A stretch of 32,000 bases of DNA from a bacterium. Lineage in GTDB: Archaea; Nanobdellota; Nanobdellia; Pacearchaeales; GW2011-AR1. Shown here in pieces: positions 12,175-31,507 of this stretch; position 1 is the stretch's first letter; the number at the start of each line of letters is the position of its first letter. The stretch covers positions 12,289 through 44,288 of the forward strand of contig DAIQOR010000005.1 of the NCBI GenBank assembly GCA_036787775.1, written 5' to 3'. Position numbers and translations under genes: made by a program. The notes below the pieces were generated by a model. The model had not been told where the DNA came from and did not search any database. It saw only the letters and a program-made list of their open reading frames with translations.

Positions 12175-12244
12175 AAAATATTTTTTAAATTAAACGATTT
12201 TGCAAATTGAAATCCTTCGGATTAATCTTATTTACAATAAGATA

Positions 12245-12328
12245 TGCGGAAGACAGGATTCGAACCTGCGTAAGCACTAAGCTACAAGAGCCTTAATCTT
12301 GCCCGTTTGACCACTCCGGCACCCCCGC
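12245..12328 (-). tRNA. tRNA-Leu (type II, long variable arm)
   Basis: The minus strand reads GCGGGGGTGCCGGAGTGGTCAAACGGGCAAGATTAAGGCTCTTGTAGCTTAGTGCTTACGCAGGTTCGAATCCTGTCTTCCGCA. Hand fold: acceptor GCGGGGG/CTTCCGC (two G-U pairs), anticodon stem CAAGA/TCTTG, loop UUAAGGC, T-arm GCAGG-TTCGAAT-CCTGT, and a 15-nt variable arm. Canonical numbering gives anticodon AAG; a one-base misread of the loop would give UAA. No CCA is encoded. Confidence 0.85.
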
Positions 12329-12410
12329 ATAATATTATAGAATTTTAACAATTTTTAAGTTTATGCTTAATCAAAAGTCTTATAAATTATTCATCGCTAA
12401 CATAATTTAG

Positions 12411-12483
12411 AGCCCCGTAGTACAGCGGTCAAGTATACTGGCCTTTGAAGCCAGTGACCCCAGTTCGAATCTGGGCGGGGCTA
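12411..12483 (+). tRNA. tRNA-Gln (UUG)
   Basis: AGCCCCGTAGTACAGCGGTCAAGTATACTGGCCTTTGAAGCCAGTGACCCCAGTTCGAATCTGGGCGGGGCTA. Hand fold: A1-U72 acceptor (typical of archaeal Gln), anticodon stem CTGGC/GCCAG, loop CUUUGAA, and T-arm CCCAG-TTCGAAT-CTGGG. Confidence 0.9.
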
Positions 12484-21037: not shown

Positions 21038-22111
21038 TCATTCATCACAAACTCCAGCTTCAGTAACCCAAAACACACATTCATTGTCTGGAAGATTTGG
21101 ACTATCAATTAACTTCGCAACTCTCGAACCTTTCTTTCCTCTTCTCAAATAAACTCTATAAGTAGAAGCATGCCCAACAATATTTCCTCCAATTGCCGTC
21201 GTCGGATCACCAAACATCATCGCAGGATTTGACATAACTTGATTTGTAACATACACAGCTATATTATGTGTCTCTGCAAGTCGCATTAACTCGTGCATAT
21301 AACGATTCAATTTTTGTTGCCTATCTGCAAGTTGCCCTCGCCCCGCAAACTCTGCCCTAAAATGTGCCGTCAAAGAATCAATAATCATCAACCGAATCGG
21401 CTCCCCGTTCTTAATCATATCACTAACTTTTTCCAAAAGCAAAATCTGATGGTCAGAATTAAATGCCCTCGCAACCAAAATATTTTTCAAAACTTTTTCA
21501 GGATTCGCTCCTTTCGCCTCGGCAATTTGTTTAATTCTCGCGGGCCTAAAAGTTCCTTCAGTATCAATAAAAACCGTTTTACCATTTGCTCCACCCATTT
21601 CTAAAGGCATTTGTACATTCACCGCTAAAGTCGAACCCAACTGAGTTTTCCCCGAACCAAAAGCCCCGAACGCCTCAGTAATCGCCCGACTTTCCAACCC
21701 TTTTCCACCCAGAAGCTCATCAAATTCTTTACTTCCTGTTGTAATATAATTAATATTCTCCCGCTTCTTCGCAAATTCAACTCCATCAGTAAAACCTAAA
21801 CTCAATAAATCTCTCGCTGCAAGAATTGCTTTTCGTGCAACCGCCGAACCCACGCCCGCCGTATCAGCCAAAACCGCCGGACTCATAACAGCCAAAGACA
21901 TCAAATCAAAAATTCCCGCACTCTCTAATTTCGAAGCAACCGCAGGACCAATCCCCGGCAAATCCGTCAAAGTCGGCTCTTTACTTTCCTTAACTTCCAC
22001 AACTTTTTTTTTCTTAGATTTAGATTTCACCTCTTCAACTTCCAAATCCTCTTCAATCATCTCTTCCCCAGAAACAGCATCCTTAATCTTTTGAACATCA
22101 ACATCAACCAT
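21038..22111 (-). CDS. radA: DNA repair and recombination protein RadA
   Basis: Motifs seen: HhH (LTDLPGIGPAVASKLESAGI), Walker A (GAFGSGKTQ), Walker B (LMIIDSL) and a C-terminal ...GGNIVGHASTYRVYLRRGK. I moved the start to MVDVDV (22111) because a tttataaata box (22133-22142) lies inside the longer track ORF, 26 nt upstream of this ATG. Confidence 0.93.
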   Translation of the reverse strand: MVDVDVQKIKDAVSGEEMIEEDLEVEEVKSKSKKKKVVEVKESKEPTLTDLPGIGPAVASKLESAGIFDLMSLAVMSPAVLADTAGVGSAVARKAILAARDLLSLGFTDGVEFAKKRENINYITTGSKEFDELLGGKGLESRAITEAFGAFGSGKTQLGSTLAVNVQMPLEMGGANGKTVFIDTEGTFRPARIKQIAEAKGANPEKVLKNILVARAFNSDHQILLLEKVSDMIKNGEPIRLMIIDSLTAHFRAEFAGRGQLADRQQKLNRYMHELMRLAETHNIAVYVTNQVMSNPAMMFGDPTTAIGGNIVGHASTYRVYLRRGKKGSRVAKLIDSPNLPDNECVFWVTEAGVCDE

Positions 22112-22132
22112 AAAAGAAAAAACCCTTCCCAG

Positions 22133-22142
22133 TTTATAAATA
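22133..22142 (-). promoter_or_regulatory. radA TATA box
   Basis: atatttataaac in the minus sense, 26 nt upstream of the MVDVDV start. Confidence 0.55.
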
Positions 22143-22164
22143 TTGTACAATTCCCAAATATAGA

Positions 22165-22663: not shown

Positions 22664-22996
22664 CTAACTTTTCAAAAAAGAACAAACTTCATTGAGAATA
22701 TTTGAAAAAGAATTTTTATTTAAACTTCCAATTTTATATTTTATCAAAGATTTTTCTATTGATGCAATTTTATCTATTCTAACAAAACTATCTCTTTTCA
22801 AAGAACCTTTCAAAAAATCTTTTTCTTTAATCAAAACTTCAACAGATTTTTCATAAGAAGATCCTGTTATTTGAAGCACAATTAAATCATCTCCTTTGGG
22901 GCATTTCAAAACCAAAACAGGTCTTCTCTTAACTCCAATTAAATTAGAAAAAGGAAAACTCACAACAAGCAAATCTCCAGCTACAAATCTCTCCAC
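22664..22996 (-). CDS. mazF: MazF/PemK-family type II toxin
   Basis: 110 aa. AGDLLVVSFPFSN....KRRPVLVL ... IVLQITGS ... VRIDKIASIEKSLI matches the PemK fold pattern. It overlaps the upstream antitoxin gene by 16 nt. Confidence 0.75.
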   Translation of the reverse strand: MERFVAGDLLVVSFPFSNLIGVKRRPVLVLKCPKGDDLIVLQITGSSYEKSVEVLIKEKDFLKGSLKRDSFVRIDKIASIEKSLIKYKIGSLNKNSFSNILNEVCSFLKS

Positions 22997-23202
22997 GCTT
23001 CATCCTCTTTATCATTAAGCCACAATTTTGCAAAAGATTTTTCAGAAAGAATCGCACTCTCCGGCAAAGACCTCTTCAAAACAATTTCATCATCTCGCTT
23101 AAGAATTATTAATTTATCTCCTTCTTTTATTCCCTGCCTCATCGCCAAAGGAATAACCACTTGTCCTCGAGAACTCATTTTTGTAACATCAATATCAACC
23201 AT
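22981..23202 (-). CDS. mazE: AbrB/MazE/SpoVT-type antitoxin
   Basis: 73 aa. SSRGQVVIPLAMRQGIKEGDKLIILKRDDEIVLK is the swapped-hairpin AbrB motif. Confidence 0.8.
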   Translation of the reverse strand: MVDIDVTKMSSRGQVVIPLAMRQGIKEGDKLIILKRDDEIVLKRSLPESAILSEKSFAKLWLNDKEDEAWRDL

Positions 23203-24616: not shown

Positions 24617-27600
24617 TTACAATTCAACATTCTCAAACAAACTTCCCTTCAAACACAAATCACCATCAAAATCAATATAACTCATGTTTGTGAAAGTTGA
24701 ATCTTGAATAATAAAAGCATCTCTTGAAGGATTACACGTCGCTGATTGATCTGAACAATCTCCAGTCACCAAACATAAATCTCCTGTAGAATTAATAAAA
24801 GCTACATTATTGTTTGTTGAATTTCTTATAATAAAACTATCTGCCCCAGGAGAATTACAAGTTCCTCCCGAAAAACAACTTCCTGCTAAAACAATATTTC
24901 CTTCATCTCCAAACCATGCGACAATTTCTCCTAAAGAATTTTTATGAGTGAATTTGTATGTATCGGGTAAAACAAAATTACATGCTAAATCACAATTTCC
25001 AGTTCCCGCAACGATGCCCTCACATCTTGAATCTGCAGTACATCCAGAATCAAATGTACTATTTCTACAAACATTATCTCTATCTTCCCCTCCAGCTACG
25101 GAAGTGCATTTATCTGCAAAATAAGGTTCTCCAGAAAAACAAGTTGTTATATTATCTCCTGTTGTTTTTCCATCACACAAAAATTCGTCACAAGAACAAC
25201 CTGCCTCAGCACATTCAAATACAGAAGTAATATCTTGATAAGAACATGTAGAACTACATTCATCTTCGTAGTAAGAAGTGCCTGAACATAAATTAAGGTC
25301 ATCTCCAGTCTGTCTTTCGTCACAATTTACATGACCCGAACCAATTGAGTATTCACAATAGCTTGTCTCTTGCCCATCAAAATAAGTATTGTAAGGAGTA
25401 AAACACCAACCATCATCTCCCAACCCAACTCCATCATCATCACAATATCCCGAACTACATTGAGAATCACTTATACATGATTGACCATTTGATTTATCAC
25501 TAACACAATCCCAATTTGACCAACTACTACTTTTATCACAATACTGATTCGCAGAACAATCACCATCATCAAAACAATTTAAGACATAAATGGAATTACC
25601 TACCCCATAATTAGGACTAAAAGGATACCACCATATCCAACAAGCCTGTTCAAGGGTATCATCATAACCAAGAATCTCATTGCGATAAGCTGTTCCAGGT
25701 GCAGTAATAGTAACCATCGTATCCTCATCATTTATTTCGTCACAATCACACCCTCCATACTCACAATCATAATCACCATCGCAATCATAATACATCTGCT
25801 GAGCATCAACATCTTTCCACCCTATTTTATATTCATCTATAACATAAGGGTCCCAAGCATCATTTACAGCACCCCATTCAATATCATTAACATTCTCATA
25901 TAAATTTTGAGCGATACTTACATCACAATCTTCATAAGAAGATTCTATACAAAACTCATATCCAGATTCTTCACAATCTTCAACTGGTGCTTCTTCCTCT
26001 TCACAATCCTCATCATAAACACACTGGCTTTCAGTTGCACATACATCGGGAGTACAATCTCTCGTCCATTGCTTTTGACTAGCACTACAACTTCCTCCTC
26101 CACATGAACCTTCTGACCAGCTACTGCAACTACAACTTGTAACATCAACCCATATTGGATTTGTATATGCTCTTCTTCCAGTATCAGTGTAAACTTCAAG
26201 TCTAATATAATCATCACTTGTATCTAAATCTATATCAAAAGAGCCAGAATAAGTGTCATCAGATACAGGGATATAATCATAGAATTGATCATTTAGATAA
26301 ATATAGATATAAGTTATATCACCAAATTCTCCATTACTTGACGCACTGATATCTAAGGTGTTAATTCCTGACATTGCATCAACCACACTTCCAATTATGT
26401 TCCCATCAAGGGTGAATTGCACAAATGGACCTGTAGATGCAATGCAGTGTCCATCTTTATAAGATTCTCTTATCGCACTTGTTGTAAGAGTTTCAGAATC
26501 TAAATAACAATAAGTGAAGGTATGTCCTACCTCGCTAATTTGGTGTGCATCACTTCCTGCTATGCCGACTATAAAACCATTATCGGGATTTGTCTCAGCA
26601 ATAAGTAAATCTTCCCATTGATTAATTGTTTCTTGGTCACCCCCTTCAAAAATCCCATCTTTAGCATTAATAAGTTCCAACCCAGAATATCCTGTAACTG
26701 ACCAGTCTTCCCAATTTAAATAATAAGGGAATCCATCATAGGGATGGGCAATAAAACCAATGCCTCCTGCATTCTCCACCTCATCTATTACATCTTGTGC
26801 ATCACGACAACCACTATTCCAAAACGTACAAGTTCCGTCAATATAACCCAAATTATCATCTGAAGAAGGATGAGTTAAATAATGGGCAGCATCGTTGATT
26901 CCAGGAGCATCAACAGCCATTTCCTGACCATACAAACATTTGAATGATGAAGTGCTGTTTCCAACACATGAATTATATCCTCCATTCCATTCTTCACTAT
27001 CGAGATAGTTGCTATGGTCTGTAAAAATAACCCAATCTAATCCCTCACTAATACTCTCATCAATCATCTCTGATAATGGAACAGATCCATCATAAGCTAT
27101 ATCTGTATGCATATGCTGGTCACCCACGTACCACCCAGGAGAATTGTGTGGGGGCGTTGGTAAAGGCTCTGAAATAAGGATTGTATGATTTATTTCAACG
27201 ATATATTTTTTATGATTATAATAAATTTTAAGTTCTAAAGGAATTATAACTATGTCCCCCACATTTAAGGAATCACTAAAATCATTTATATTCAAATAAA
27301 AAGCTTTTGAAAAACTTTTGAATCTAACTTCGTTTCTTAATCTTTTTAGCTCTAATTTATTTTCTAAAGAGCTCAATTTTAAACTATCTAAGCGATCTAT
27401 TTGCTCTTTAACAGGAAGAATATTTTTATTTATTGTAAATTCTCTTATCTTTTCTTTTTTGGGAGAGATAATTTTTATTTTTTCAATAGAAGCGTTGTCT
27501 TTCCCTAAATTCGTTATTGTAGGTTTTATAATAAAAATATCTCCAGAACGTAGAGCACTTGAACCATCAAGAGTTATATTTAGAAATGAAATTTCCTCTT

Positions 27601-27676
27601 CTGAGTTTTGTGCATAGGTAAGAGGGACAAGTAATATTAAAAATATCAAAATTAATAAAAAATTAGTTTTTATCAT
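24617..27676 (-). CDS. large secreted protein: signal peptide, Ig/CARDB-like domain, PHP (CehA/McbA-like) phosphoesterase domain, beta-rich domain, and a ~500-aa Cys-rich region with a triple C-terminal repeat
   Basis: 1019 aa. Signal peptide: FLLILIFLILLVPLTYA/QN. PHP metal-ligand motifs: WYVGDQHMHT, DWVIFTDHS, GFIAHP and GSDAH. About 46 Cys (hand count) lie after residue ~515. The C-terminus repeats the motif (V/S)(A/Y)(W/F/I)(F/I)(G/N/D)xxG(N/D)(I/L)(V/C)L three times. Confidence 0.7.
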   Translation of the reverse strand: MIKTNFLLILIFLILLVPLTYAQNSEEEISFLNITLDGSSALRSGDIFIIKPTITNLGKDNASIEKIKIISPKKEKIREFTINKNILPVKEQIDRLDSLKLSSLENKLELKRLRNEVRFKSFSKAFYLNINDFSDSLNVGDIVIIPLELKIYYNHKKYIVEINHTILISEPLPTPPHNSPGWYVGDQHMHTDIAYDGSVPLSEMIDESISEGLDWVIFTDHSNYLDSEEWNGGYNSCVGNSTSSFKCLYGQEMAVDAPGINDAAHYLTHPSSDDNLGYIDGTCTFWNSGCRDAQDVIDEVENAGGIGFIAHPYDGFPYYLNWEDWSVTGYSGLELINAKDGIFEGGDQETINQWEDLLIAETNPDNGFIVGIAGSDAHQISEVGHTFTYCYLDSETLTTSAIRESYKDGHCIASTGPFVQFTLDGNIIGSVVDAMSGINTLDISASSNGEFGDITYIYIYLNDQFYDYIPVSDDTYSGSFDIDLDTSDDYIRLEVYTDTGRRAYTNPIWVDVTSCSCSSWSEGSCGGGSCSASQKQWTRDCTPDVCATESQCVYDEDCEEEEAPVEDCEESGYEFCIESSYEDCDVSIAQNLYENVNDIEWGAVNDAWDPYVIDEYKIGWKDVDAQQMYYDCDGDYDCEYGGCDCDEINDEDTMVTITAPGTAYRNEILGYDDTLEQACWIWWYPFSPNYGVGNSIYVLNCFDDGDCSANQYCDKSSSWSNWDCVSDKSNGQSCISDSQCSSGYCDDDGVGLGDDGWCFTPYNTYFDGQETSYCEYSIGSGHVNCDERQTGDDLNLCSGTSYYEDECSSTCSYQDITSVFECAEAGCSCDEFLCDGKTTGDNITTCFSGEPYFADKCTSVAGGEDRDNVCRNSTFDSGCTADSRCEGIVAGTGNCDLACNFVLPDTYKFTHKNSLGEIVAWFGDEGNIVLAGSCFSGGTCNSPGADSFIIRNSTNNNVAFINSTGDLCLVTGDCSDQSATCNPSRDAFIIQDSTFTNMSYIDFDGDLCLKGSLFENVEL

Positions 27677-27950
27677 CTTTCCGACACCTCTTTATAAAAA
27701 ATCCAATTTTCCCTCCAATGATAGAACTAAATAAAACAGAGAGTATCACAATTGTCATAGATCTCATTATCAACGTGGAAGATTTACAACTATCAATACA
27801 ACTAAGCCCCATAAAATAAGAAGAAGAAAAAATTTTGCCAATAAACCATATAAGATAAGGCACAACAAAGAATAAAGGATAAAATAGTATTAAACCAATA
27901 AATCCTCCAACAAAAATCCCTATCCAAGATGAACTTCGTCTTTTTCCCAT
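27663..27950 (-). CDS. small polytopic membrane protein (about 3 TM segments)
   Basis: 95 aa, hydrophobic, with basic termini. It overlaps the start of the 1019-aa gene by 14 nt. Confidence 0.5.
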   Translation of the reverse strand: MGKRRSSSWIGIFVGGFIGLILFYPLFFVVPYLIWFIGKIFSSSYFMGLSCIDSCKSSTLIMRSMTIVILSVLFSSIIGGKIGFFIKRCRKDDKN

Positions 27951-27977
27951 TTTATATTTTTATTAACAATTCTTTAT

Positions 27978-29248
27978 TTATAAAATCTCCGAATGATTCT
28001 CTCCCGATGCTTCAGTATAATGTGCATCACTTCCAGCTGTTCCTCGAATAAAACCATCAGAAGGATTTGTTTCTTCCTCTAAAAATTCAACCCAAGAATC
28101 AGTAACTCCTCCCGGGTTATTTATTGCAAGCGCATCATCTCCACTAAATCCCCCATTAATAATTTCTAATCCCGTAAAACCAGTAAGTGACCAGTTCCAA
28201 TCAAACATATCATTATGAGGATGTGCAACAAATCCTATTCCACCCGCATTAGTTATTTCATTTATAACTACCTGCTCATCATCACGACACTCACATTGAA
28301 ACCATCCACAATATCCATCAACATATCCAAGATCATCATCATCATCAGAACTTGGATGAGCTAAATAATGACGATTTTCCAAAGTATCACACACCAAGGA
28401 ACCTCGCCGATAGACATCTCCTGACCATATAAACATTTGAAAGAACTTGTAGACTCTGAATCACAAGCATCACGCCCATCTTCCCATTCAGATGCTTCTG
28501 AAAAAGCAACACTATGATCTGTAAAAATTATCCAATCCATCTCAGACGCTTTCGCAGCATCCACCATATCATCAAGAGGATCTGGAGTTTCGGCAAGAGT
28601 AGAACCAAACTCACTATGAACATGCTGATCTCCAACATACCAACCAGGAGAATTATGTGGAGGCTTTGGTAACGATTCAGAAAACAAAACCGCCCTTTCT
28701 CTACGAACAACATATTTCTCACCATCAATCTTAAACTCAATGTCAATTGAAATATTAATTAATTCTCCAATCTCCAAAGTATCATCAAAATCTCTTATGT
28801 CTAATCTAAAACTTTTTTTAAAAGTTTCATTTTTAATTTCAGAAATAATTTTTATATATTCTTGATATTCTGGCTGTTCTTCAGTTAATCCAGGAATTTC
28901 ACAAAATTCTGGTTTCTGTAAATAATCTCTTATTTCTTCCTCTCGTTTAAGAATTTTCTTCAAAGATTTAATTTCTTTATTAATATCCTCTGCCTTAATT
29001 ATTTTTTTACCATCGTTTAATATTGTTACTTTTTTAATATCCAGTGTTAAATTTTCATTTAAATTTCTAATTGTTATCGAAGCTGGAAAAATATTCCCTG
29101 TTCTAATTACCGACGAACTATGAAACTCTACAAAGATATCAATATCTTCGCTTGGTTTTGATGCGGAGATCGTGGAAATGTTCAAAACTATAACTAAAAC
29201 AAGAATTGCTATTAAAAAATTTGTGCACTTTCTTTTATTGATTTTCAT
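27978..29248 (-). pseudogene. frameshifted, shorter paralogue of the secreted PHP protein
   Basis: Track ORFs 28361..29248 and 27978..28436 overlap in different frames. Together they align with residues ~1-400 of the 1019-aa protein (PPHNSPGWYVGDQHVHS, DWIIFTDHS, FKCLYGQEMS | HYLAHPSSDD, GGIGFVAHP, GSDAH). The frame change is near 28400 (...GQEMSIGE / GSLVCDTLENRHYLAHP). Confidence 0.65.
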
Positions 29249-29255
29249 TTTAAGT

Positions 29256-29690
29256 TTATTTTTTATTTTTATAATATCCTATTAAAAATAAAATTATTGA
29301 AAGAAAAAAGATTAATCCAAACATAATGATAAAAAAGAAAACTACTACAATTAGTCTGAAATCTCCACCAGTAACTCGTACATAGTAAGAAAAGATTGTA
29401 TAGAAAATTATCAATCCTAATAAAACAAAAGTATTTAACAAAAAAGATATTAAAAACCAATTGTTCTTTAATTTACATATGCGAAAGGATTTAATATGGA
29501 GAACAAATACATATAATAAAAATAAAAAAACTATTAAAGCAACAAATAACATTCCTAAAGAAGTCCTTCCATATTGATCAGTAAAAAAATCAAAAATGAT
29601 TTTTGTAGTTAAATATCCAAAAAAGATTAATGAAATAAAAATCATAGTAGTATCAATAATATGAATAAGTTTACTTTTTTCCATTTTCAC
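29256..29690 (-). CDS. polytopic membrane protein (about 4-5 TM segments)
   Basis: 144 aa, strongly hydrophobic. It lies immediately upstream of the PHP paralogue, with a 7-nt gap. Confidence 0.55.
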   Translation of the reverse strand: MKMEKSKLIHIIDTTMIFISLIFFGYLTTKIIFDFFTDQYGRTSLGMLFVALIVFLFLLYVFVLHIKSFRICKLKNNWFLISFLLNTFVLLGLIIFYTIFSYYVRVTGGDFRLIVVVFFFIIMFGLIFFLSIILFLIGYYKNKK

Positions 29691-29726
29691 CTTTTTTTCT
29701 TCCCATCATTATTTTTAAAATATTTT

Positions 29727-30548
29727 TTAATCAAATAATTCCTTAAAAAAATTAATTAACCTTTCTAAAAAAATTAATTTCTCTTTGGATTCTTGCGAAA
29801 GAATAACTACCGAATCCGATTTTATTATTTGATTTTCGCTTACACTTTCTTCAATAATATCCTCGCAACGTGAAAATTTTCCAGGGTTGTCTTCATCACA
29901 TCCATCAAGATCATTTCCATGCCCTTTATCGTCTTTTTCAACATCTTCTTCAACTACCTCAATAGTCTCTTCAATTTGATTTTGAGATTCTTCATCCTCA
30001 AGAACTTCTTCACTTACTACATTTCCACTAATAGAATTTTGTTCAGTATTTCCATCAACAATAATTGTCTCATAATTTGAAACACTTGAAATTGCCAAAT
30101 CTTTATTACTTATTTTTTTGATAGAAAAATCTGCAGACCTAACAGTTCCATATCTTCCTCCTTTAATTATCTCATCCAATTCAATAATTATATCTTTTGC
30201 ATTATCCCCATTTAGATCTATTCTCCCAGATTCTTTAAGATTTAATCTAAATATGTCTTCAATAATCTCATATGCTGTTATATCTTCTAAATTATTTTCA
30301 TCTAAATTCATAACAACAAAATCTACATACCCCTCTTTCACTCTTCTTAATTGTATTGCATACCATTGTTTTTCAAATTCAAATTTCAATCTTCCTGGAG
30401 TCATATCATAAGTATTTCCTTGTTCAGTCAAACTTATGGTTGAAATGGGTATTGTCGCCCCTCCTCCAGAGCTCGCATCAATAATATTTAACATTCCGAT
30501 TATAAAAAATAAAACTCCAAATACCAAAAATTTATTTCGATTTCCCAT
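29727..30548 (-). CDS. secreted protein with an acidic C-terminal half
   Basis: 273 aa. Signal peptide: FLVFGVLFFIIGMLNIIDA/SS. The central module resembles the membrane-proximal module of the 17201..18820 surface protein, followed by a Glu/Asp-rich region. Confidence 0.5.
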   Translation of the reverse strand: MGNRNKFLVFGVLFFIIGMLNIIDASSGGGATIPISTISLTEQGNTYDMTPGRLKFEFEKQWYAIQLRRVKEGYVDFVVMNLDENNLEDITAYEIIEDIFRLNLKESGRIDLNGDNAKDIIIELDEIIKGGRYGTVRSADFSIKKISNKDLAISSVSNYETIIVDGNTEQNSISGNVVSEEVLEDEESQNQIEETIEVVEEDVEKDDKGHGNDLDGCDEDNPGKFSRCEDIIEESVSENQIIKSDSVVILSQESKEKLIFLERLINFFKELFD

Positions 30549-30640: not shown

Positions 30641-31507
30641 ATGAAATCAAAAAGAGGTTTTCAAAAAAGATTCTTAGAAATTTTAAACAGCAAGCCGATT
30701 ATAGGATTATTTATTTTTTTAATTCTTGGCATAGCAATGGTCGTCGCTGGTGATGTTGTTGTTAAAGAGGGCGATATGGATATTAATAACGGACTAATCG
30801 TAAATGATATATTATATGTTAACACTACCAATAATAATGTGGGAATAGGAACAAATTCTCCCCTTAGTGGAATTAAATTGGATATTGATGGTCAAACGAG
30901 ATCAAAAAATTCAATATTGTGGAGCCCTTCTGCATCAGGCTGGGTAGCTCAACTAAAATTTATGACAATGGATGGACTCTCAACTCATCATGTATTTTTT
31001 ATAGATAGGGGAGATAATGATAGATTAAATTTAGATTTGAATCGGAATGGAACTTCAGAAGATATAATGAGAATTAGAGGAGGAATTGATATAGATGATA
31101 GTTTAACAATTGATAATTATTTAGGAGTTGGTTTAACAAATCCAAATCAATCAGTAGATGTAAATGGAAATGTTCAAGCATTGGATTTTATAACTATATC
31201 AGACAGAGAACAAAAAGATAATATTAAAGAATTAAATGTCAACGAAGTTTTTTCATCAACACCAAAACTTTATGAATATCAATTCAAAAAACAAGTTCCG
31301 GTTTATGACGAAGATGAAGAAAATGTATTAAGTTACACAACCGAATTAATGCCTCCTCAAGTTGGATTGATGATGGATGAAGTTCCAGAAGAATGCAGGA
31401 AAGGAAAAGGTGTTGATAATTATTGCATGCTTTCTTTGGCTTACACACAAATAATAAGTTTACAAAACGAACTTTGTACAAAAGATAATTCTTATAGTTG
31501 GTGTTGA
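30641..31507 (+). CDS. membrane-anchored tail-fibre-like protein with a C-terminal S74 intramolecular-chaperone (endosialidase chaperone) domain
   Basis: 288 aa with an N-terminal TM segment (IIGLFIFLILGIAMVVAG). NNNVGIGTNSPLSGIKLDIDGQ and LGVGLTNPNQSVDVNGN match the (V)GIGT..P...LDV.G fibre repeat. ISDREQKDNIKEL...LYEYQFK...VGLMMDEVPEE...LSLAYTQIISLQNEL matches the SD.R.K.NI ... Y.y ... GliAqEv ... peptidase S74 pattern. Confidence 0.65.
   Translation: MKSKRGFQKRFLEILNSKPIIGLFIFLILGIAMVVAGDVVVKEGDMDINNGLIVNDILYVNTTNNNVGIGTNSPLSGIKLDIDGQTRSKNSILWSPSASGWVAQLKFMTMDGLSTHHVFFIDRGDNDRLNLDLNRNGTSEDIMRIRGGIDIDDSLTIDNYLGVGLTNPNQSVDVNGNVQALDFITISDREQKDNIKELNVNEVFSSTPKLYEYQFKKQVPVYDEDEENVLSYTTELMPPQVGLMMDEVPEECRKGKGVDNYCMLSLAYTQIISLQNELCTKDNSYSWC

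Follow-up and report, generated by a model that had tools for sequence, protein, structure and literature searches.

Relation of the locus to described systems

The described enzymes closest to the system reported here are the carbaryl hydrolases McbA of Pseudomonas sp. C5pp and XWY-1 and CehA of Rhizobium sp. AC100. McbA is a periplasmic enzyme; histidines are essential in its PHP-like metal site, and its leader consists of a 73-amino acid transmembrane domain (Tmd) followed by a 23-amino acid signal peptide (PMC8292978). We identified a member of the same enzyme family, here called E, in a gene cluster on contig DAIQOR010000005.1, within a stretch of 32,000 nucleotides (contig positions 12,289 to 44,288) which is referred to as the window. 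The cluster consists of tightly packed minus-strand open reading frames (ORFs), named A to E, which run from position 30548 to position 24617 of the window with gaps of 36, 7, and 27 nucleotides and an overlap of 14 nucleotides between D and E. The original prediction for this region, made by a model from the sequence, had listed five close minus-strand genes; ORFs for A, B, D, and E were found at the predicted coordinates, but the third gene (C) consists of two ORFs. We propose, with a probability of roughly 0.6, that the locus forms a conserved operon for cell-envelope proteins, with E as its core product, in an archaeon which is uncultured and has a low GC content. The architecture of the locus is well supported; the substrate, the relation to a host and the role of D are inference.

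E and McbA, the sequence of which was read from mcbA on pXWY, share the full NCBIfam model of the family (NF038032, CehA_McbA_metalo), whereas direct similarity between the two proteins is negligible and limited to a GW..GD.H.H stretch. E has an immunoglobulin-like (Ig-like) domain, a 500-amino acid cysteine-rich region and C-terminal repeats, none of which are present in McbA, and the xenobiotic carbamate hydrolyzed by McbA is unlikely to be relevant to E. The Tmd and signal peptide of McbA are mirrored by natural fusions in relatives of E, in which a D-like unit, a predicted signal peptide and the enzyme follow each other in cis; in the window the membrane element would be provided in trans, through gene D. 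The McbA leader contains one hydrophobic segment, whereas the D-like unit is a hairpin and in the window a separate, translationally coupled gene. The possibility that D-like proteins are homologous to the McbA leader was ruled out with a D-like hidden Markov model (HMM), against which the McbA N-terminus scored -0.1 bits, within the range of shuffled controls. Exported family members and a leader of a membrane segment plus signal peptide were already known, both from McbA. Export signals are indeed predicted on E, but export of such enzymes is not without precedent, with McbA in the periplasm and many bacterial homologues bearing signal peptides. New are the dedicated D-like and B-like membrane-protein families, separate from or fused to the enzyme, the fusion of the enzyme core to a giant cysteine-rich surface region, and the conserved neighbourhood of A and F in a clade of uncultured archaea. 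With this locus the CehA/McbA family, of which only pesticide hydrolases are known, is extended towards natural roles.

Secreted proteins of Planctomycetota, Acidobacteriota and other groups have the same core of Ig-like domain, PHP domain and beta-sandwich, carry signal peptides and are 27-32% identical to E over residues ~30-518. These bacterial relatives are about 600-700 amino acids long and lack the cysteine-rich stalk, and no A-like or F-like neighbours were noticed in 18 loci. In the Isosphaeraceae loci L015, L024, and L027-L029 a shared non-membrane ORF of about 148 amino acids lies directly upstream of the PHP homologue, and the mature N-termini of the Isosphaeraceae homologues open with a conserved H-x-H-(S/T)-(T/A)-P-W motif. 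Cytoplasmic PHP phosphoesterases (RNase AM/TrpH, YcdX, PolX, Pol III alpha, and TM0559) have the PHP barrel which is predicted for E and the same HxH/H/E/H/H/DxH ligands; unlike E, they have no signal peptide and no conserved disulfide-type cysteine pairs, they are far smaller, and the sequence likeness does not extend beyond the first motif.

Surface assembly and cell-cell interactions are poorly understood in tiny uncultured archaea, and the giant surface proteins of these organisms are mostly unannotated. Very large exported proteins which combine enzymatic and adhesion-type domains occur in small archaea of the DPANN group, for example the SPEARE proteins of Nanohaloarchaeota. Compared with these by description only, E has a PHP hydrolase instead of other enzymes and is about 1,000 instead of several thousand amino acids long. 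To our knowledge, SPEARE-type proteins are not described as having a hairpin membrane protein as a dedicated partner. Literature searches for PHP together with DPANN and for the CehA/McbA family name returned no papers, and a search for giant DPANN surface proteins returned nothing specific. In this setting, the locus offers a concrete enzyme, with an Ig-like, PHP and sandwich core modelled by AlphaFold2 and an intact metal site.

E is predicted to be a full-length CehA/McbA-family metallohydrolase

E is divided into the following parts:

24617-27676, minus strand: whole gene E, coding for a giant protein of 1,019 amino acids, predicted to be exported (ORF; 17 homologues)
27167-27589, minus strand: E residues 30-170, beta-sandwich of the Ig-like type, interrupted by a helical insertion (AlphaFold2 model; strands at 32-86 and 126-168, helices at 90-120)
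26144-27136, minus strand: E residues 181-511, CehA/McbA-type PHP metallohydrolase domain and C-terminal beta-sandwich (profiles, ligands and AlphaFold2 model)
24977-26137, minus strand: E residues 514-900, acidic cysteine-rich region with 40 cysteines, strain-variable
24620-24976, minus strand: E residues 901-1019, three repeats of about 35 amino acids (F.I..NS....VA.I...G.L.L.G), read from the sequences

The Pfam PHP profile (PF02811) matched E with 32.3 bits (cut-off 26.4), and NF038032 matched residues 181-511 over model positions 1-315 with 138.2 bits (cut-off 80), compared to 174.4 bits for McbA as a control. Eight ligand residues (H188, H190, H221, E252, H265, H311, D376, and H378) are invariant in an alignment of 15 sequences and D220 is nearly so; the cysteine pairs 237/247, 283/290, and 390/411 of the PHP domain are invariant or nearly invariant in the same alignment, and the number of cysteines is even in every domain of E, which is in keeping with export. 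The PHP motifs which the original prediction had noted in C and E are supported by these results, with Pfam PHP above its cut-off in both proteins. By the family's own criteria, E is, as judged from its sequence, a full-length member of the CehA/McbA-family PHP metallohydrolases. Orthologues of E in the related loci L001, L002, and L005 are 62, 53, and 43% identical, no relatives at 40% identity or more were present in a scan of GTDB genomes, and the C-type and E-type subfamilies each occur in other loci.

A confident AlphaFold2 model of E residues 1-520 (predicted local distance difference test score (pLDDT) 84.6, predicted template modelling score (pTM) 0.84) consists of an N-terminal helix, the Ig-like sandwich with its helical insertion, the PHP barrel and the C-terminal beta-sandwich, in this order. 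Foldseek retrieved RNase AM (9etk) and the PHP domain of Pol III alpha (2hnh) with probability 1.0 and with low TM-scores, which are low because the query is a multi-domain protein. The Foldseek list for the three-domain model was dominated by glycosidases and macroglobulins, which match at the level of architecture with TM-scores below 0.2 and are uninformative. A sequence search of the PDB with the PHP region found only TM0559, and only through the first motif, whereas the cysteine-rich half had no relative in the PDB and only a weak Dickkopf_N match in Pfam.

Within the population, the E variants P0018-P0024 have unchanged residues 1-400 and differ in the beta-sandwich and the cysteine-rich region. 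In P0024 the beta-sandwich includes a mosaic patch, with 32 differences within residues 400-500, and the changes in the cysteine-rich region of the variants are scattered. This pattern suggests recombination or diversifying pressure on the outer parts. Homologues replace or extend the distal part with PKD, FG-GAP, He_PIG or beta-helix domains. An invariant core combined with a variable or exchanged distal part fits a conserved catalytic base which carries an exposed, disulfide-stabilized variable stalk. The repeats at residues 901-1019 are shared with P0002, P0004, P0006, P0010, P0012, and the giant protein of L090, including short proteins without a cysteine-rich region; this module, which lies outside known families, could be a binding or sorting element.

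Signal peptides had been predicted for A, C, and E. Based on hydropathy and cleavage-site motifs, this assignment holds: each of the three proteins has one N-terminal hydrophobic segment followed by an A-x-A-type site with small residues (IDA/S, ISA/S, and TYA/Q, respectively). In E this segment, residues 1-25, is the sole hydrophobic segment, and a C-terminal transmembrane helix with a sorting motif of the PGF-CTERM/archaeosortase type is absent.

A membrane-protein/PHP pairing is conserved in archaeal relatives

Two small membrane proteins are encoded in the cluster:

27663-27950, minus strand: D, two-transmembrane hairpin protein of 95 amino acids, D-like family; its stop overlaps the start of E
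29256-29690, minus strand: B, B-like membrane protein of 144 amino acids with four transmembrane segments (hydropathy; YIKSF..C.LNNNWF and an ILFLIGYxKNK tail conserved)

Hydropathy analysis of D indicated a long first and a second hydrophobic stretch. The protein has a basic N-terminus, a W-I-G-x-x-x-G-G-x-x-G motif in the first transmembrane segment, and IIGGxIGF followed by a basic tail in the second. About three transmembrane segments had been proposed; because both ends of D are basic, a two-transmembrane hairpin with cytoplasmic termini fits better. The polytopic nature of B agrees with its approximately four hydrophobic segments. B scored no better than shuffled controls against the D-like HMM, and hhalign comparison of the B-like and D-like alignments gave a probability of 0.7%, by which homology of B to D is ruled out. 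The idea of a duplicated module of membrane protein and PHP enzyme is therefore valid only for the enzyme genes, which are paralogous (40% identity), and not for B and D, which belong to unrelated families.

In L001, L002, L005, and L088-90 (orthologues 43-62% identical), an A-like gene comes first, followed by between one and three D-like hairpin units, the gene for the PHP giant and an F-like gene. In five related lineages, the D-like gene overlaps the PHP gene by 4 nucleotides or abuts it without a gap. A D-like ORF was also found upstream of a more distant PHP relative (about 28% identical to E) in L037, a Woesearchaeota metagenome-assembled genome, with a score of 15.4 bits compared to at most 5.1 bits for shuffled sequences. 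In P0005, P0013, P0015, P0045, and P0046, one or more D-like units are fused ahead of a retained signal-peptide-like segment (…NLVSA/QQ…), and in L001_6787 a D-like domain is fused to a copy of the Ig-like domain. A search with the D-like profile among 1.84 billion representative sequences found only six members, of which half are N-terminal fusions to a PHP protein. B-like proteins are encoded upstream of C-type PHP genes in L092 (29% identity) and L097 (50% identity, fused to the first transmembrane segment of a D-like protein), and in L098 the D-like gene is followed immediately by a gene for a B homologue (47% identity). In the 18 bacterial homologue loci from GTDB genomes, the PHP gene was not preceded by a gene for a small polytopic membrane protein, and an upstream ORF in Altiarchaeota (L033), considered as a further D-like candidate, was not supported by the D-like HMM. 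The adjacency which the original prediction had reported is not due to chance, as related archaeal loci show it again and fused genes exist, and, from gene order and fusions, we regard the membrane-protein/PHP pairing as real for the archaeal branch of the enzyme family. The D-like hairpin, fused or coupled upstream, is a natural "Rosetta stone" case for a partner protein, and A-like, B-like, and D-like proteins represent three small families without a match in Pfam or NCBIfam.

In L097 (532-2492) the fusion of the first D-like helix to a B-like protein lies upstream of a C-type PHP gene which bears a TAG codon, and in L098 (536-1299) the D-like and B-like genes overlap. D-like and B-like proteins may work together, as this fusion and this overlap suggest.

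Proposed arrangement and function of the E protein

The N-terminal half of E would contain the core, made up of the Ig-like domain, a predicted trinuclear-metal PHP hydrolase and the beta-sandwich, and the C-terminal half would be a disulfide-rich, strain-variable stalk or adhesin-like region ending in the three repeats. D, with a predicted N-in, C-in topology, appears to be translationally coupled to E, and its topology would be compatible with handover to the N-in, C-out signal peptide of E. The natural fusions between D-like units and the enzyme indicate that the two elements act on one polypeptide. D may associate with the N-terminal helix of E in the membrane, thereby holding or targeting the enzyme, either by packing as a third-helix partner against a signal anchor which stays uncleaved, or as a pro-region which remains in the membrane once signal peptidase has released the ectodomain. 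Outside the cell, E would hydrolyze an ester bond, which could be a phosphoester or a carbamate/carboxyl ester according to the family assignment and the intact ligands. As far as can be read from the sequences, E is likely an ester hydrolase which is secreted or exposed at the surface and sits on a variable, cysteine-rich stalk, and D would aid its targeting to or anchoring in the membrane. If E acts on envelope phosphoesters or nucleic acids, the locus bears on nutrient acquisition or host contact; otherwise E would be an ordinary exported hydrolase with an unusual leader.

Several observations weigh against a cell-envelope operon centred on E. The data do not constrain the substrate, and the only characterized members of the family hydrolyze a xenobiotic carbamate. 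The export of E and the cleavage of its signal peptide are predictions from hydropathy and site motifs, and N-glycosylation sequons are not enriched in E (9 compared to 10 expected). The parallel with McbA is an analogy only, since the two leaders are unrelated. Nor is the pairing strict: the C-type homologue P0010 has no upstream membrane gene, and in L098, where the D-like gene overlaps the B-like gene by 4 nucleotides, no PHP gene is adjacent. A 94% identical strain (L094) keeps F, A, and B, and synteny is lost exactly at the B/C junction. Comparison of L094:5228-5692 with window positions 29263-29690 showed that B is identical in amino acid sequence except for its tail, after which an unrelated ORF of 72 amino acids and a dCMP deaminase follow. 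Strain-level loss, a rearrangement of C-D-E or a chimeric contig could account for this break.

Alternatively, E could serve as an extracellular nuclease or phosphatase which frees nucleosides or phosphate for a biosynthetically limited archaeon, with the cysteine-rich part as a tether. PHP enzymes are mostly phosphoesterases, the closest structural PHP matches of E come from RNase AM, which is a ribonuclease, and from the PHP domain of Pol III, and the export signals and intact trinuclear site would fit such a function. However, these fold matches have low TM-scores, the family label derives from carbamate esterases and not from nucleases, no transporter or nucleotide-salvage genes are found in the conserved neighbourhood, and a 500-amino acid variable cysteine-rich stalk would be superfluous for a simple scavenger. 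We consider nutrient scavenging rather unlikely.

A role in host contact, in which E would be an adhesin, with A and F as co-adhesins, and would use its PHP domain at the contact site to modify the envelope of a partner cell (lipid head groups or polymers with phosphodiester links), is suggested by the giant cysteine-rich surface protein with outer domains that vary among strains around an invariant enzyme, by the adhesin-type PKD, FG-GAP, He_PIG, and beta-helix domains which homologues swap in, and by the conserved tail-fibre-like neighbour F. Host, symbiosis and substrate are all hypothetical here, though; free-living Planctomycetota and Acidobacteriota have the same Ig-like, PHP and sandwich core, and the PHP domain adjoins the membrane anchor instead of the distal tip, and these points make a host-contact effector unlikely. 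The most far-reaching form of this idea, in which the D-like hairpin would be an undescribed trans-acting "split leader" for a giant PHP ectoenzyme and A-D-E-F a DPANN-type host-interaction apparatus that cuts phosphoesters of the partner envelope at the contact site, is speculative and in our view quite improbable.

From gene order, fusions and population variants, it is very unlikely that the PHP hydrolases are toxins with B and D as cognate immunity proteins: both genes for secreted hydrolases have a small gene in tight linkage and the locus differs between strains, but the small gene lies upstream, the enzyme domain is N-terminal and invariant and not a swappable C-terminal tip, a PHP gene without partner (P0010) and partners without PHP gene (L098) exist, the polymorphic-toxin layout of a variable C-terminal toxin with an immunity gene directly downstream is not found at this locus, and the immunity role which had been suggested for the membrane proteins fits poorly because in several lineages they are fused to the N-terminus of the enzyme, before the signal peptide.

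The second PHP gene is disrupted

The third gene of the cluster has the following features:

28361-29248, minus strand: C1, 5' ORF of the split C-type PHP gene; encodes the signal peptide, the Ig-like domain and the HxH, DH, and E motifs, then out of frame to the stop
27978-28436, minus strand: C2, 3' ORF of the split C-type PHP gene; encodes the HYL, AHP, and GSDAH motifs and ends 13 codons past DAH
28391-28392, minus strand: frameshift site, CCTTGGTG-TGTGAT, one G fewer than in the intact homologue P0003 (EVPWWCDTL)

The region 29248-27978, which had been taken as one gene, consists of two overlapping ORFs in different frames (29248-28361 and 28436-27978), and a 1-nucleotide deletion at about 28391/28392 splits C. 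The lesion (CCTTGGTG^TGTGAT) was located by alignment to P0003 (…GQEMSIGEVPWWCDTLGNSHYL…). A single intact C gene is ruled out by the two frames together with this comparison. With the missing G restored, C encodes 423 amino acids and is 61% identical to P0003 and 40% identical to E over 378 amino acids, in agreement with the alignment between the two PHP proteins that had been noted earlier. Restored C keeps every PHP metal-ligand residue and stops straight after GSDAH, so that the CehA/McbA domain lacks its final third and both the beta-sandwich and the cysteine-rich part are missing. The Pfam PHP profile matched C1 with 28.7 bits (cut-off 26.4), whereas NF038032 gave only 26 bits (cut-off 80) on this fragment, a low score which results from the gene being split and truncated.

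The exact frameshifted C1 product of 295 amino acids was found on 17 contigs from NCBI, JGI, Logan, and ENA, and it is present on the independent JGI contig L007. The presence of the same broken product in several archives makes a random assembly error unlikely, and a sequencing error is unlikely for the same reason. A frameshift was also found in P0022, a variant of E on an ENA contig, after about residue 505, where the sequence continues in the alternative frame listed at window positions 25945-26217. It represents either an assembly error or a second disrupted allele, and it calls for caution about indels in such metagenome assemblies.

C-type copies have decayed elsewhere as well: L001 keeps only a membrane domain fused to an Ig-like domain, and the C-type gene of L097 has an in-frame TAG at a conserved Trp. 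These sequence comparisons suggest that C, which goes back to an older paralogue, is most likely a pseudogene. B and C together may be the older paralogous module, with a membrane-protein family of its own, in which C was inactivated by the 1-nucleotide deletion and by 3' truncation. That C is functional, either through programmed -1 frameshifting which joins the two ORFs or as a split enzyme, might be argued from the identical frameshift on 17 contigs and the intact catalytic residues; yet no slippery heptamer (X XXY YYZ) was found in a scan of the shift site demanded by homology (CCT TGG TGT GTG), by which programmed -1 frameshifting was rejected, the C-terminal third of the domain is missing, C-type copies were degraded independently in two other lineages, and, as diversity in the population is very low, the intact motifs may just reflect recent inactivation. 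We therefore regard a functional C as highly improbable.

Neighbouring genes and other features of the window

Two further genes at the locus encode putative surface proteins:

29727-30548, minus strand: A, acidic protein of 273 amino acids, predicted to be exported (signal peptide; ORF and hydropathy)
30641-31507, plus strand: F, N-terminally anchored protein with a tail/tail-fibre-like C-terminus (ORF; transmembrane segment at residues 11-44)

The A family comprises 12 proteins, none of which has a match in Pfam or NCBIfam. A beta domain of about 100 amino acids (GGGAxVPI...PGRLKFEF...AIQLRRVK...DITAY) and a C-terminal amphipathic helix (FLExxINFFKELF) are conserved, and the acidic linker is variable. 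The AlphaFold2 model of A was poor (pLDDT 51) and gave no significant fold match. A-like genes are present upstream of the membrane-protein and PHP genes in L001, L002, L005, L088-90, and L097. F is transcribed divergently from A in the window, whereas in L001 and L090 an F-like gene is the next gene downstream of the PHP gene. The C-terminus of F matched PHROG 5555 ("tail protein", E-value 4e-7) and PHROG 17524, and over the N-terminal 105 amino acids F is 50% identical to L001_11105. F also contains a stretch, SDREQKDNI, which we take to resemble the start of tail-spike intramolecular chaperone domains, without a match in Pfam. A and F are conserved next to the PHP locus and are probably additional components of the surface. 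The wider conserved neighbourhood also includes genes for a HIT protein and for a prepilin-type peptidase, which are located just beyond the edge of the window.

The marker genes of the window are archaeal and include RadA (21038-22150), an RPA-like OB-fold protein, aEF-1beta and two tRNAs. The window is AT-rich, with a GC content of about 32% overall and mostly 25-40%. A scan for promoters and terminators with bacterial-type models was uninformative, as these models are bacterial while the organism is archaeal. Immediately downstream of the RPA-like gene, at positions 22664-23202 on the minus strand, a MazE/AbrB-type antitoxin gene (22981-23202) overlaps a PemK-type toxin gene (22664-22996); both were named from Pfam marks on the identical JGI contig L007. 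The genes for tRNA-Leu(AAG) (minus strand) and tRNA-Gln(TTG) (plus strand) at positions 12244-12483 are divergently oriented, with 81 nucleotides between them.

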